Positions 12,296 through 19,517 of a DNA stretch of 64,000 nucleotides are shown piece after piece. Position 1 is the first letter of the stretch; each line of letters starts with the position of its first letter. The stretch spans positions 192,001-256,000 of the IMG/VR virus record IMGVR_UViG_3300038443_002533. One strand, 5' to 3'. The DNA is from a virus. Taxonomy: Duplodnaviria > Caudoviricetes. The position numbers were made by a program, and so were the translations under genes. The notes beneath the pieces were generated by a model. That model did no database searches. It was given only the letters and a program-made list of their open reading frames with translations, and had not been told where the DNA came from.

Positions 12296-12749
12296 CAAAG
12301 CCTTGAGCATCGACGACATCGGGAAAAATAACCCGTACGAAAACACCCCAATCCTTACCCGAGAAGAAGCACTTGACGCTATCGCTCGCGCCGCGCTTAA
12401 CAAAGCAGAGCTGATGTGGGGCGAATCTCGAATGAGTTCGCGACTCACTATCGATGATCGAGTCTATGGTGCCGTTTATTCAACACTGAAATTACTGCAA
12501 GAAGGAGTGGAGGGGCGTATCCCGCCGTTTGATTTGGTGCCGCAATTGCCGTTGGACGAAGCCACGACAGAACCCACGATACCCGTCCGGCGTGAAGAAA
12601 AGATTGTCCTAGGCGGCTGGCCGCAAGATCCGATCTCGCTTGCCGCCACCCCGACCGACCCGGTTAGCTTGACGTCGACGTACGCCGACATTTACGACAG
12701 TTTCCGCGAACGCCTGGCGGCCAGTGCCCGTGACTTATTCCGCGATTAG
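12288..12749 (+). CDS. RAAKDLF-array member 9
   Basis: Start ATG 12288; DDRVYGAVYSTLKLLQEG...RERLAASARDLFRD. Confidence 0.78.
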   Translation: MTNKALSIDDIGKNNPYENTPILTREEALDAIARAALNKAELMWGESRMSSRLTIDDRVYGAVYSTLKLLQEGVEGRIPPFDLVPQLPLDEATTEPTIPVRREEKIVLGGWPQDPISLAATPTDPVSLTSTYADIYDSFRERLAASARDLFRD

Positions 12750-14739: not shown

Positions 14740-15189
14740 ATGACCCAACAACACATTTACGTGATCGACATTCATCGCGAGATCGAGCGGTTTCGGACCT
14801 ACCACGCTGGGTATGCCAATCCGCAAGTCCCGGTGTCGCTCCAAACCGAATACATCCACATGGTGGTGGAACAGATGATCGCCCACTTCGAGGTTGAAGC
14901 TGTAGCGGTGGAATCGTTCATCAACCATTACACCCTACTCATCACCGACTCCACCGTCTCGCCCCTCTTCAAATACCATCCCTTGAAGTTCCTGCGTCAG
15001 ATGGACAACGCGGGGTATCAACACTACCTGTACTGCCTGTATGGATTTGCGGAAGAGATCTTCCGTCTCTTGCAATCCCACGGGATGTTCAATGAGCGTG
15101 GCATCATTCGGGCTAGTTATCAACACGTCACGCAAGACTCGCTCTATCTCATCATTCGGCCGGAGGTCTCTCATGTCTTTCTCAGCTGA
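14740..15189 (+). CDS. hypothetical protein, tandem paralogue
   Basis: YVID...LQSHGMFNERG...ASY shared with 15173. Confidence 0.7.
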   Translation: MTQQHIYVIDIHREIERFRTYHAGYANPQVPVSLQTEYIHMVVEQMIAHFEVEAVAVESFINHYTLLITDSTVSPLFKYHPLKFLRQMDNAGYQHYLYCLYGFAEEIFRLLQSHGMFNERGIIRASYQHVTQDSLYLIIRPEVSHVFLS

Positions 15190-15679
15190 TCCCATCTTTA
15201 AGAGTGTCACTGGCGTACCGAGTTATCCGCTACTGGATGGCCACTACTACTTGGTGGACGCTACGTACGCCCTCAACGAGTATTACCGCACGCCGTTCCA
15301 TGTCCGGATGCATTTGCTGGGTGAAGGGGCGGAGTTGACCGAGTACGACATGGCGGATGTGGAACTCACCGAACTCGTCCCCTGCATCAATGACATCAGA
15401 AGTTGTGAAGATGAGCTGTCCAAGCACGTCGAACACTTGCTCGATGAAGGCGTCGAGATCGTAATCTCCGATATGGAGAACTGCGGGGTGCCAGTTCAAG
15501 ACGGACAACTCATCCCAAATACCCAAGAACAGATCCAGCACGCGCAAGCCACTTACGAACTCGGGCACCGTTTACGCGAACTGTTCATGAGCCACGGGCT
15601 GTATGACAAGTACGGCGAATTGGTGGCAGAATACACCGGCCTCTTAGAGAATGGTTTGATTGCACTGCGGCGTAGGTAA
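15173..15679 (+). CDS. hypothetical protein, tandem paralogue
   Basis: Start ATG 15173 (GGAGG SD); YLVD...FMSHGLYDKYG...AEY. Confidence 0.7.
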   Translation: MSFSADPIFKSVTGVPSYPLLDGHYYLVDATYALNEYYRTPFHVRMHLLGEGAELTEYDMADVELTELVPCINDIRSCEDELSKHVEHLLDEGVEIVISDMENCGVPVQDGQLIPNTQEQIQHAQATYELGHRLRELFMSHGLYDKYGELVAEYTGLLENGLIALRRR

Positions 15680-15687
15680 GATACTAT

Positions 15688-16010
15688 GTACAATACACTG
15701 CCCTAGTGCAACTTACCGTGTCACACTAAGGGGGAAAGGTGTGCGAAAATTAACCGTGCTGAGGTAACTTCGGGAGAACTCGCTTAACCCGCTGGGATAT
15801 GGGGCGGAAGAAAACGCACGAACGGTACGGGTGATAAGACATCACCAAGTTGTTAGGAGGGGTTTTCGGTCGAGTGCATGCACGCGTCAATCCGAATAGC
15901 AGCCGTGAGCTGGATTGCTTGAACAGTCAAGCTCACGGGTGTAAATGACCCACAGTCAGGTACACTTGACGTTGGTATCGAGATCGGTTGGTTCAGAACT
16001 CGGGTATTGA
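15688..16010 (+). ncRNA. candidate structured non-coding RNA with RNase P-like motifs
   Basis: No credible ORF; TATG at 15685; ends pair (15691-15700 with 16001-16009, one bulge); several internal hairpins; terminator at 16056. Confidence 0.45.
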
Positions 16011-16055
16011 TGGCAGAGGTTCTTTTGCGTTGTTTCCTTATGTGATATGCTTTCG

Positions 16056-16087
16056 CCCATGGATCCTGCGGGGTCCATGGGTCTTTT
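16056..16087 (+). terminator. intrinsic terminator
   Basis: CCCATGGATCC-TGCG-GGGTCCATGGG followed by T-rich tract. Confidence 0.7.
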
Positions 16088-16154
16088 TATGCCGTTTTTT
16101 CTTTTGGCTATTGTTATGAAGCACTCTATACCCCTCGACTGAAAAGAGACCCAC

Positions 16155-17684
16155 ATGAGAAAGTTTTCCTACAAAGCCCCCGAGCCCCAGGCGCCGGTGG
16201 TACCCGCGCAACCGCAGTTGTCGCTGGAAGAGCAGGCCATCTTGCAAGACGAACAAAATGAGGTGGTCGCTAAGCTGGATGAACAAAACGATGACATCGA
16301 CCGCCTGGTGGACACCGACGCCAGCATCCAAGACACCGTCCTGATCGTCGACCAAACGCCCGAACTCGGCGTGGTGGAACAAGCCCTGGTGGGCGCGGTA
16401 GCGGATGCAGCCGTGGCCGGCACCGACGCGGAACCTGAACAAGTCATCAGCGCCACGCCGGAAGGCTTGGCCAGTGAAAGCTTTGTTTCGGAAACTCTGG
16501 AACGCCTGAAGAAGATCTGGGAAAAGATCAAGGAATACTTGATCAACGCCTGGAAGTCGCTGGTGGAATATCTGGCAGGCGAAAAGCGTCAAATCGAAGC
16601 CGTGCAGAAAGAAGCCGAGAAGGTCGAAGCCTTCCTCGAAGAAAACAAGGCGATCCTGCAACTCGAATACGTGCCCAATCACCCGATCTTGCTGGGCCAT
16701 GATCCGGCGGTGAAAGAACGTGCTGACGCCAAGAAAGCGCAAGATCAAGCGGACTACGATAAGCGGGTGGCTGACGAAGCCCAGGCCAAGGCGGACTCCG
16801 AACAACGTGGTGAAGAAGAGCGCAAGGCCAAGATCGAACACGCCCTGGCCGAGCTGCGCAACAAAATCGCCAGCCATCATTTCCAGTTCAAGGGCAACGT
16901 CAGCCTGATCTCGACCACGAGTGGCGTGCCGAAAGACTTCGAGAAGGAAGTGGTGAATCTGTCCAGCTACGCCCAGCAAGTCCACAAGGCCATCGGCCAG
17001 ACCCTGCGCGAACTGTGCCACGCCTTTGACGATGTGCTGGGTAAGTTCGACAGCGCATCCCCGCAAGCGGCGATTCCGGGCTTTGTGGATCGTTTCCACA
17101 AAGACTTCGAGGTGCTGGGTCGCGCCATCGGCGAGATGAAGAACCATGACGGTCTGCTGCGCGCGCACACCCGGGTCCCCCTTCTGGGTCAGTTCGATGT
17201 GGAAATCACGGACGAGAAGAAAGAAGGCGACGTTAAGCTGGCAGCCACCCTCGGCGCAGTCGGCCGTGCCGCCATGAAAGTCTCGTATGGCACTGGCAAG
17301 AAAGAAGGTGACGTACCGCTGCTGCCGGAACTGCTGCAACCGGTTACAACGGCCACCATCAAGAAGTGGGCCGAGTTCCAACTGGGCCATGACGCCGTGG
17401 GTCTGGAAAACACGCTGAAAGAGTACGGTGAGAAGTTCGTGCCGAAACTGGACCGTCTGGTGCAAGTCCAGCAATCGGTCAAAGGCGTGGCCGACGAGAA
17501 CGAATCGTATCACGTCATCCAAGGTTTGATCAACGTCTGCCGTGGCCTGGACAAGATGATCATCGAGTTCACCCTCAAGTATGGCTCGTCCGTCCGCAAC
17601 ATCATGCAAAGCGCGCTGCGTTACCAACACGAAGCCGCCCAAGAACGCATTCGCCTCTACAAAGAAGCGGTCGCCAGCATCTAA
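16155..17684 (+). CDS. phiKZ-like internal head (ejection) protein, gp93/gp162-type family
   Basis: Acidic propeptide with protease sites LSLEE and LASES; shared ALVGAVADAAVAGTDA and L.K.WE.IK helix; strong late-gene codon bias. Confidence 0.8.
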   Translation: MRKFSYKAPEPQAPVVPAQPQLSLEEQAILQDEQNEVVAKLDEQNDDIDRLVDTDASIQDTVLIVDQTPELGVVEQALVGAVADAAVAGTDAEPEQVISATPEGLASESFVSETLERLKKIWEKIKEYLINAWKSLVEYLAGEKRQIEAVQKEAEKVEAFLEENKAILQLEYVPNHPILLGHDPAVKERADAKKAQDQADYDKRVADEAQAKADSEQRGEEERKAKIEHALAELRNKIASHHFQFKGNVSLISTTSGVPKDFEKEVVNLSSYAQQVHKAIGQTLRELCHAFDDVLGKFDSASPQAAIPGFVDRFHKDFEVLGRAIGEMKNHDGLLRAHTRVPLLGQFDVEITDEKKEGDVKLAATLGAVGRAAMKVSYGTGKKEGDVPLLPELLQPVTTATIKKWAEFQLGHDAVGLENTLKEYGEKFVPKLDRLVQVQQSVKGVADENESYHVIQGLINVCRGLDKMIIEFTLKYGSSVRNIMQSALRYQHEAAQERIRLYKEAVASI

Positions 17685-17692
17685 TCCTTGTG

Positions 17693-17727
17693 CCCCTTGG
17701 CTACGGCCAAGGGGTCTTTCTTTTTTT
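17693..17727 (+). terminator. intrinsic terminator
   Basis: CCCCTTGGC-TACG-GCCAAGGGG plus T-run. Confidence 0.8.
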
Positions 17728-17738
17728 GAAAGTGTATT

Positions 17739-19115
17739 ATGCAACGTCATTTCAAACCGCTGCCCGTACCAGTACCTACGCTGGAGTTGTCACTGGAAGA
17801 AGAAGCCATTCTGACCGATGAAGTTCGCCAGAACGAAAACGAACTGGAACAACAGGCAAACGACGTCGATCAACTGGGTGACATCATCGTTACCATGGGG
17901 GACGTACAGACCGTCGTGTCCAACACCCCCGAAATAAAAGCCATCGACCAAGCGCTGGTTGGCGCGACTGCCGATGCCGCTGTAGCGGGTACGGATGCCG
18001 ATCCGGAAGATCTCGTCGGTAGCATGCTGCCCGACGAAGGCGTCAGCGCCGAGAGCTTCGTGCAGTCCATCAAAGACACGCTGGTCAAGATGTGGGAATC
18101 GATCAAGTCGGTCATCAGCAAAATGTGGGACCACATCAAGACGTTCTTCCAGAACATCGCTAACTTCTTTAACGGCACCAAGCGCCGGATCAAGAAGCTG
18201 CAAGGTATCTTGCATGACAACTCTTTGTCGGGCGCGGCTGTACTCGAAGATGACAAATTCAAAGGCAACCCAGCCTATCTGCTCATCCCCAACCGAAACG
18301 GACGCCAAAACGGCGGGGTGGCGTTCAGTGCGCCTCACTCGGTCAAAGAGGAGTACGAGGCGTTTGCCGAAGTCGCCATGAACACCTGCGTCTGGCTGAC
18401 CGCTGGCGGCCGTGATCTGATGCAAGTCACGGGTAAGATGGGTGAGAAGTTCAAGAACGTCTCTGACATGGAAGCGGACTATTCGGGCCTCGTGAAAGAG
18501 GTTCAGGATGGTTTGGCGGAGCTGGACAAAGCACTGCGGGTGGGTTACAAGAACACCGGCGGCAACAGCGAACGCTCTGGCCACGCGCTGATGGGTGGTC
18601 TGCATTTCAGTGGTCTGGGGATTGAAAATAGTGGCAGCACCCTGACCAAGACGCTGGAATTCCTGAACCAGATGAAATACAAGGTCGAGTCGGAAGTCGC
18701 CGAGAACCCGAAGACGTATGTCGTGCGGCTTACCGGCAAAGTCGACGACGTCAAGGCCATGCTCAAAACGGCCGAAGAATGGGTGCAGATGGGCGAAGCC
18801 AAGAAGATCATGTTCGAGACCTTGGTAAAGCAAGCCGAGACGGCGCGCAGCCAGATCGACAACGGGCTGAAAGGGTTGAAAGAGCAAGACCAGCTTACGC
18901 CGGAACGCAATCGTGAACTGAAACTCATGATCTCGCTCAACGGCAAAATCAACTCGATCGTTACCAAGACCATCTCGGGCATCGTGACTCATGGCACCCA
19001 CGTCACCAACGCGGTGCTGGACTACTCGATCGAGTCGGTGGAATCGATGATGGGGGTTACGAAGACGGGCGGTATCCATAAGGGGCCGGCAAATCCTTTC
19101 CCGAAAACAGCTTGA
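17739..19115 (+). CDS. phiKZ-like internal head protein paralogue
   Basis: N-terminal ~150 aa homologous to 16155 (LSLEE, VSAES, ALVGATADAAVAGTDA); divergent C-terminus. Confidence 0.8.
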   Translation: MQRHFKPLPVPVPTLELSLEEEAILTDEVRQNENELEQQANDVDQLGDIIVTMGDVQTVVSNTPEIKAIDQALVGATADAAVAGTDADPEDLVGSMLPDEGVSAESFVQSIKDTLVKMWESIKSVISKMWDHIKTFFQNIANFFNGTKRRIKKLQGILHDNSLSGAAVLEDDKFKGNPAYLLIPNRNGRQNGGVAFSAPHSVKEEYEAFAEVAMNTCVWLTAGGRDLMQVTGKMGEKFKNVSDMEADYSGLVKEVQDGLAELDKALRVGYKNTGGNSERSGHALMGGLHFSGLGIENSGSTLTKTLEFLNQMKYKVESEVAENPKTYVVRLTGKVDDVKAMLKTAEEWVQMGEAKKIMFETLVKQAETARSQIDNGLKGLKEQDQLTPERNRELKLMISLNGKINSIVTKTISGIVTHGTHVTNAVLDYSIESVESMMGVTKTGGIHKGPANPFPKTA

Positions 19116-19160: not shown

Positions 19161-19517
19161 CTATTTCTTTTTTGGCCACACGGGCAGGGGTACCGATTTG
19201 CCAGCGAGATGGTGCGGGCTATCGGTACAGTATTCAATGCGGCCTTCGACAATAAAGTAGTGGCACGTCGTGTACGACACGCGTCGTTCGCGTTCTTCTA
19301 AGTTACGGGGTGCGTTGGAGCTGATCCGCATCGAGGGGTAGAACGAGGGTTGTTGGTAATCGTGGTTGAATGTCCAACCGATATTTTCATGGAACAGGGT
19401 GTATTGGTGTACCTCATCGCACGCTGGGCATAGGTGGCAGTAATACCAGCGCTTATTAAAATCGTTAAAAAAGCGCCGTAGATACGGGCCCACTTGTTCC
19501 ATCTCATCATATCCCAT
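19161..19517 (-). CDS. DUF6527-like Cys/His metal-binding protein
   Basis: CPACDEVH...WTFN.D...PSF.PS...CHYFI.EG.I.YC.DS.H.LAG.SV.LP pattern. Confidence 0.7.
   Translation of the reverse strand: MGYDEMEQVGPYLRRFFNDFNKRWYYCHLCPACDEVHQYTLFHENIGWTFNHDYQQPSFYPSMRISSNAPRNLEERERRVSYTTCHYFIVEGRIEYCTDSPHHLAGKSVPLPVWPKKK

Follow-up and report, generated by a model that had tools for sequence, protein, structure and literature searches.

A probable new family of structured RNA encoded beside the internal head protein genes of uncultivated phiKZ-like jumbo phages

Jumbo phages that form a nucleus keep transcription apart from translation and use RNA polymerases of their own, and to our knowledge almost nothing has been learned about the non-coding RNAs of these phages except from transcript maps. 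Complex RNAs that combine multiple helices with invariant junctions are rare, and those that are understood (RNase P, tmRNA, riboswitches, ribozymes and pRNA) have each revealed new biochemistry. Transcript mapping in the phages phiKZ and 201phi2-1 has uncovered many short RNAs that run from a promoter to a terminator 5' of genes (PMC10914365, PMC11512511), and in phiKZ the non-virion RNA polymerase uses the motif TATG as its late promoter and starts transcription at the G (PMC4666361). On a broader scale, a survey of IMG/VR has reported about 8,500 candidate structured RNAs with sizes of 29-151 nt (PMC10690425).

The RNA described here is found in the genome of a phiKZ-like jumbo phage, IMG/VR record IMGVR_UViG_3300038443_002533, which is 272,470 bp long, carries direct terminal repeats and is rated complete. 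The stretch that was analysed, called the window, comprises 64,000 nucleotides (bases 192,001-256,000 of the record), and positions are given in window coordinates unless a genome or contig is named. Genes of phiKZ type in the window include those of the major head protein, a DnaB-like helicase, a DEAD-like helicase and a polymerase subunit. Judged by the helicase, the closest cultured relatives are Burkholderia phage FLC9 and Ralstonia phages RP12 and RP31, at 46-48% amino-acid identity only. A gap of 475 bp without genes (15680-16154) is flanked by two ORFs of the + strand, and its layout, with the evidence for each element in brackets, is as follows.

15173-15679, + strand: upstream neighbour, gene of an orphan protein of about 168 aa (synteny; 31-48% amino-acid identity in homologues)
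15685-15688, + strand: TATG, a late-promoter-like motif (invariant in all nine aligned rows; present in 8/8 members)
15688-16088, + strand: the RNA, about 400 nt from putative start to terminator U-tract (homology by nhmmer; covariation; G-U versus A-C counts)
16055-16088, + strand: predicted intrinsic terminator with 12-bp stem, tetraloop and U-tract (hairpin in 8/8 homologues)
16088-16125, + strand: conserved block 3' of the terminator with two TATG, at 16088-91 and 16115-18 (conserved in alignments; second TATG in all sequences aligned there)
16155-19115, + strand: downstream neighbours, two paralogous internal head protein genes of 509 aa and 458 aa (PF12699; paralogy)

The listed ORF of the upstream orphan begins at 15041 and overlaps the preceding gene, and its homologues favour 15173 as the probable start, giving 168 aa. 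The orphan adjoins the RNA in 7/8 loci, with its stop codon 6-13 nt before the TATG. It has no match in Pfam or PHROG and carries an invariant GxYYLVD motif; its AlphaFold2 model (pLDDT 85) resembles in fold only uncharacterised proteins of Ralstonia jumbo phages. The orphan was considered as an RNA-binding partner and set aside, as the protein is acidic and its predicted fold gives no sign of RNA binding. Downstream, the 458-aa protein belongs to PF12699, phiKZ_IP (Pfam, E = 2.9e-14, above the cut-off), and shares 41% identity over 147 aa with its paralogue, the 509-aa protein (E = 2e-29). The number of tandem PF12699 paralogues 3' of the RNA varies from one to three among relatives (noted in L019, L022 and L006). 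A DUF6527 protein of 118 aa (E = 4.9e-10; 19161-19517, - strand) lies between the internal head protein genes and the helicase and is kept in relatives.

Two features outside the window were also recorded. At 162,440-164,029 of genome G000 the Rfam tRNA model gives six clustered matches, four of them above the cut-off, of which ARAGORN calls only two (Gln, Asn), so that some may be unusual or degenerate tRNAs. At 64,040-65,373 of the same genome lies its largest stretch without a long ORF (1,334 bp, by crude ORF calling). A role of the RNA locus as origin or primer RNA was rejected, as the GC skew is flat and has no inflection there.

Direct searches for close relatives with the flanking proteins gave no matches; the helicase 3.5 kb downstream was therefore used as an anchor, and eleven related loci were fetched. 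With the gap sequence as query, nhmmer detected homologues in six of these eleven (E from 5e-61 to 6e-4), all syntenic. A pattern search with the invariant blocks recovered the same contigs in IMG/VR and added two metagenome contigs, near-identical to each other. The family thus consists of eight distinct sequences, all from uncultivated relatives that form one small clade. In all eight loci the RNA is situated directly 5' of the PF12699 paralogues and in the same orientation, and its invariant blocks have been retained among members in which the flanking proteins share only 31-48% identity. It is a single-copy gene by the covariance model, and neither blastn nor the covariance model finds a paralogue in the same genome; a weak second match of the model (G007, 12403-12487) is inside a protein-coding gene and was dismissed as a chance match. 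Beyond the clade, the covariance model gave no match in four relatives at greater distance (helicase identity below about 50%), nor in Burkholderia phage FLC9 and Ralstonia phage RP12, each searched as a whole record. The analogous gap in L009, considered as a possible locus of the RNA, is occupied by small ORFs. Searches anchored on the flanking proteins yielded no additional loci, no DNA match to the RNA exists in 50,697 phage records, and an exact-pattern scan, which found no match in 185,579 prokaryote genomes, brought up no members outside the clade in IMG/VR and JGI metagenomes. A literature search found no description of this RNA.

The preliminary description of this locus, made from its sequence alone, proposed a structured non-coding RNA in the gap. 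This has held up: the gap is conserved in eight distinct sequences, shows compensatory changes, and on the + strand folds with a minimum free energy of -143.8 kcal/mol and z = -3.25, compared with z = -2.22 on the - strand. We consider it very probable that the gap contains a real structured RNA gene of a previously undescribed family. The elements of its fold, all on the + strand, are the following.

15701-15732, + strand: H1, 11-bp hairpin with an A bulge (93.9% of cells paired; 4/11 pairs change on both sides; checked sequence by sequence)
15741-15819, + strand: H2, GUGCG (15741-45) with CGCAC (15815-19) (3/5 pairs change on both sides; checked sequence by sequence)
15820-15830, + strand: linker RAACGGURCGG (nearly invariant)
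15830-15846, + strand: H3, hairpin GGUGAU/AUCACC (91-93% paired; 2/4 pairs double-changed in A4, 3/4 in A3)
15855-15862, + strand: 5' strand of the candidate long-range helix LR, AGGAGGGG, GAGGGA in most homologues (pairs with a CU-rich strand 5' of the terminator)
15865-15896, + strand: H4 (UUCGG/CCGAA) around H5 (CG-GUG/CAC-CG, 15871-15886) (H4 94.9% and H5 87.5% paired; double changes in each)
15899-15942, + strand: H6, long hairpin CCGUGAGCU/AGCUCACGG with base GCA/UGU and an R-G mismatch (95.8% paired; 4/9 pairs double-changed)
15943-16032, + strand: variable 3' domain (differs among sub-lineages; nearly absent in L007)
16033-16040, + strand: 3' strand of LR, UUUCCUUA (YUCCUWR motif 5' of the final hairpin in 7/8)

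In the aligned sequences, at least six helices (H1-H6) are maintained by compensatory substitutions and are joined by nearly invariant single-stranded linkers. The core structure (H3, H4, H5 and H6) was fixed by hand and then scored by pair counting: 93.3% of its cells are paired, a share that drops to 28-43% on sliding the 3' partners by 1-3 columns, 19 cells are changed on both sides, and none of 500 shuffles reaches the observed covariation score. In the 5' part (H1, H2, H3 and a pseudoknot candidate) 93.6% of cells are paired, compared with 27-38% after sliding, and 28 are double-change cells; all these covariation counts come from only eight distinct, mutually related sequences and include shared ancestry. 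RNAalifold, applied to five members, independently found H1, H3, H4/H5 and the terminator; in its prediction 23 pairs are changed on both sides. The core helices contain 18 G-U cells against 3 A-C cells, from which it follows that the + strand is the RNA strand.

The clearest case of covariation is H2, whose sequence is different in 8/8 members with the pairing retained (GUGCG/CGCAC, GUGUGU/ACACAC, GUCGCU/AGCGAC, GUGACCA/UGGUCAC etc.). It closes a variable domain of 23-70 nt, and in every case only 1-2 nt separate the end of its 3' strand from the invariant AACGGUACGG. Within this variable domain, at 15762-15784, the sequence GRGGUARCUUCGGGAKAAC(Y)C is kept in 5/8 members, with one compensatory change at the closing pairs. 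The loop region of H1, AACUYAYCGUGU (15710-15721), is nearly invariant, H4 and H5 lie within the invariant block UCGGUCNAGYG, and the tip of H6 varies in length. Two of these helices were already present in the preliminary description, GGTGAT/ATCACC at 15830-35/15841-46 as the present H3 and CCGTGAGCT/AGCTCACGG at 15903-11/15930-38 as a part of H6; both covary, and the comparison across related phages that it had proposed revealed compensatory changes in all of H1-H6. The TATG at 15685-15688, the hairpin at 16055-16082, the helices and the short words that it listed are likewise all where it had placed them. Its other pairings are present in this genome and fare differently in the family. The pairing of the two ends, CAATACACTG (15691-15700) with CGGGTATTG (16001-16009), is present here and not in the homologues; in every homologue a shuffled leader pairs about equally well, and the positions of the best partners are inconsistent. 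The GTCA/TGAC and GGGT/ACCC pairs are also present, and lie in the variable 3' domain that differs among sub-lineages, so they are not family features.

Several possible contacts would connect these helices over longer distances. The linker ACGGU (15822-26) may pair with ACCGU of the H1 loop (15715-19) as a candidate pseudoknot, with 100% of cells paired, one wobble change and zero double changes, or alternatively with GYUGU (15849-53) as a local helix, with 97.8% paired and one C-A mismatch. A candidate second pseudoknot, UGGCAGAGGU (16011-20) with 15753-61, draws its support only from the comparison of the window and L002 with L008. The LR helix (GAGGGA near 15856 with UUCCUUA near 16034) changes on both sides in L003, L005 and L007; the support that it gains is only moderate, because its strands are purine/pyrimidine-rich and it is the best-scoring site in only 3/8 members. 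Taken together, both pseudoknot candidates and LR are weakly supported. In the most distant member (L007, 15075-15395, - strand), the 3' domain is nearly absent and the 5' strand of LR pairs over 10 perfect bp with UCCUUAUGAC, which is located 3' of the CUUCGG hairpin and followed by a run of ten U. This pairing and the run of ten U suggest that in L007 the closing helix itself may serve as the terminator stem.

Conservation and covariation also support the proposal of the preliminary description that the RNA forms a discrete unit from promoter to terminator. Its transcription would start at G15688 if the use of TATG as a promoter can be carried over to this phage from its distant relative phiKZ; the genome-wide context of TATG gave no usable promoter logo, as crude gene calls mix in start codons. 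At the other end, the hairpin at 16055-16082 has a 12-bp stem with 7 G-C pairs and is followed by the U-tract CTTTTTAT. A final hairpin of 11-13 bp with a CUUCGG-type loop and -19 to -24 kcal/mol is found in 8/8 members with freely different stem sequences, and the U-tract after it in 7/8, L007 being the exception. The region after the hairpin (16083-16125) is conserved among relatives (CTTTTTATGCCGTC ... TTTTGG(T)TAATTGTTATGAAGC) and looks like a junction of terminator and promoter: the first TATG overlaps the U-tract of the terminator and the second is about 35 nt before the next start codon. This block is likely to be a separate promoter of the next gene.

How such an RNA might work can be outlined from these features. 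On balance we favour a stand-alone late transcript that adopts a compact fold and acts in trans by binding a partner. Its transcription, by the late RNA polymerase of the phage itself, would begin at the invariant TATG and end at the terminator hairpin, so that the RNA would accumulate late in infection as a discrete molecule, and the internal head protein genes would be served by their own downstream TATG. The invariant linkers and the H1 loop would pack the helices into a compact tertiary fold capable of binding the partner in trans, for which a small ligand and a protein of phage or host origin are candidates.

The main rival of the stand-alone transcript is a cis-acting 5' leader of the internal head protein operon, which would sense a protein, a ligand or the polymerase and so set the degree of read-through past the hairpin; we hold this to be unlikely, yet it is the alternative that deserves most attention. 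HK022 put RNA is an example of a leader that acts on the polymerase itself, and a put-like action on the phage polymerase is possible for the present RNA. A leader would account for the constant position directly upstream of, and co-oriented with, the PF12699 paralogues in 8/8 loci and for the terminator at the end of the RNA. For phiKZ, 17 candidate 5'-UTR RNAs from conditional or premature termination have been reported (PMC10914365), and the 10-bp pairing of the LR 5' strand with sequence past the hairpin in L007 hints that read-through RNA can refold. An antiterminator, however, was not found: the best upstream partners of the 5' strand of the terminator reach -11 to -18 kcal/mol, compared with -19 to -24 kcal/mol for the hairpin, are no better than shuffled controls and are placed inconsistently among the members. 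The terminator stems differ freely and the conserved blocks upstream do not change along with them, no riboswitch, aptamer or leader model of Rfam matches, and the conserved TATG block between terminator and start codon suggests a separate promoter. The lack of an antiterminator, together with the invariant TATG, the terminator hairpin and the TATG block after it, favours two separate units, an RNA gene and, after it, a protein gene with a promoter of its own, and is not proof of this. Riboswitch and attenuator leaders and the RNAs of processive antitermination (HK022 put, EAR) are similar to the phage RNA in being structured RNAs between a promoter, putative in the phage, and a terminator, upstream of controllable genes. 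They differ from it in that the phage RNA has no competing antiterminator and no match to a known class, and has a promoter-like motif after the terminator.

A more far-reaching possibility, which we regard as improbable, is that the RNA represents a new functional class, a ribozyme or the subunit of an RNP, needed late by the nucleus-forming jumbo phages of this clade. If this were true, the RNA might, for example, help to assemble or load the "inner body" of internal head proteins, whose genes always follow it, and a structural or catalytic role for RNA in head morphogenesis would exist outside the paradigm of phi29 pRNA.

Antisense action, in which the exposed H1 loop would pair with a phage mRNA or with the helix 69-71 region of host 23S rRNA, appears very improbable. 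The loop sequence AACUUACC is indeed the complement of GGUAAGUU in 23S rRNA over eight bases. However, the loop varies (U/C, C/U) in half of the members, which would break this pairing, and the longest perfect complements to the E. coli rRNA operon, 9-11 nt, are at chance level and fall in non-homologous places in each member. The phage genome, moreover, contains no complement to any conserved single-stranded block except the opposite strand of the gene itself.

Equally slight is the chance that the gap is not an RNA gene at all and holds a small-protein gene, a DNA-level site (origin or packaging) or a decaying spacer. ORFs of 25-66 codons can be found in every homologue, but they differ in strand, frame and position. 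This lack of a position-conserved ORF, along with indels that are mostly not multiples of three, indicates that the gap is not a protein gene. The compensatory and strand-specific G-U changes point to selection on RNA, and the invariant blocks are retained at a divergence that leaves the flanking proteins only 31-48% identical.

The preliminary description had further suggested that the RNA might be RNase P-like in diverged or truncated form, might be a decoy that binds tRNA, or might belong to a new class, and of these three only the last is supported by the evidence. A search with all 4,227 Rfam models returned no family at gathering score in the 64-kb window and none at E<=10, with permissive filters, in 15600-16200; six homologous loci likewise gave no family match at E<=10, and the sole listing, CRISPR-DR11 on the minus strand at E = 5.2, is noise. 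Other catalogued RNAs considered and rejected, with no Rfam match at gathering score or at E<=10, are tmRNA, group I and II introns, riboswitches, 6S and GOLLD/ROOL, for the last of which Rfam presumably includes models. ARAGORN reports no tRNA or tmRNA in the window.

The case for RNase P was built on colinear short words which, in the window sequence alone, resemble those of E. coli M1 RNA, and to these may be added the loose similarity of a long-range purine/pyrimidine helix after a hairpin to P3-P4 and the tRNA genes that the phage carries. These words are present, but each either lacks conservation or belongs to a strand of one of the helices described above, UAAGGG for instance being the 3' strand of H1. 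The word CAGAACTCGG (15994), claimed as an RNase P motif, is peculiar to this genome and not conserved among homologues, and the same holds for the 5'/3' end pairing expected of P1. The Rfam search that had been suggested as a check gave no score for any RNase P model at E<=10, in the window or in the six homologous loci. With GNAANNUCNGNG and ACNNAANNNGNNUA assumed as the patterns of the universally conserved regions CR-I and CR-V, the pair that forms P4 is found in 0/8 members; CR-V is absent from 8/8 and a single CR-I-like match occurs, in L007 only. GAGGAAAGUCC is also absent from the members. The 5' region consists of three independent hairpins and not of P1/P2 strands, with no equivalent of P1 or P4. 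A decoy finds no support either, since tRNA genes are found just as well in relatives that lack the RNA as in those that carry it, and show no co-occurrence with it. Bacterial RNase P RNA (RF00010/RF00011) is thus similar in size, in having a hairpin and then a long-range helix, and in some M1-like words in one sequence, while all of its testable defining features are missing from the phage RNA. Membership of the RNase P RNA family (bacterial A/B, archaeal or type T) is rejected and nothing suggests an RNase P-like working, so that a diverged or truncated relative or a tRNA-binding decoy is hardly to be credited.

Among described RNAs, the nearest in kind are the non-coding candidates of phiKZ-like phages known from ONT-cappable-seq and Grad-seq (PMC10914365, PMC11512511), which come from the same viral group and have the layout of promoter, short transcript and intrinsic terminator upstream of a gene that is predicted for the present RNA. 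As with the present RNA, their sequences are conserved among close relatives, and an intrinsic terminator before the next gene, by which such RNAs are delimited, is found here too (hairpin in 8/8, U-tract in 7/8). They are defined by transcript ends and mostly measure about 90-200 nt, whereas the present RNA is known from its fold and has no sequence relation to them; in the parts of those reports that we consulted, a multi-helix fold supported by covariation was not found (PMC10914365, PMC11512511). GOLLD, ROOL and other large "ornate" RNAs from phages and prophages (PMC12286853) resemble it in being phage-borne multi-helix RNAs with invariant junctions and pseudoknot candidates, and no obvious protein partner. 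Unlike them, the present RNA is smaller (about 400 nt, of which the conserved core makes up roughly 200 nt), is very narrowly distributed and matches no Rfam model. The phi29 pRNA, a packaging RNA that forms a part of the particle-assembly machine, is comparable as a phage-encoded structured RNA that adjoins head genes. This is an analogy only, to illustrate what an RNA associated with the head might do, as the two have no relation in sequence or structure (no Rfam match) and nothing connects the present RNA with packaging. Compared with all these systems, what is new is an RNA family of eight members, confined to one small clade and to metagenomes only, in which a covariation-supported RNA with defined helices keeps a fixed place beside the internal head protein genes and lends itself to synthesis, probing, imaging and use as bait.
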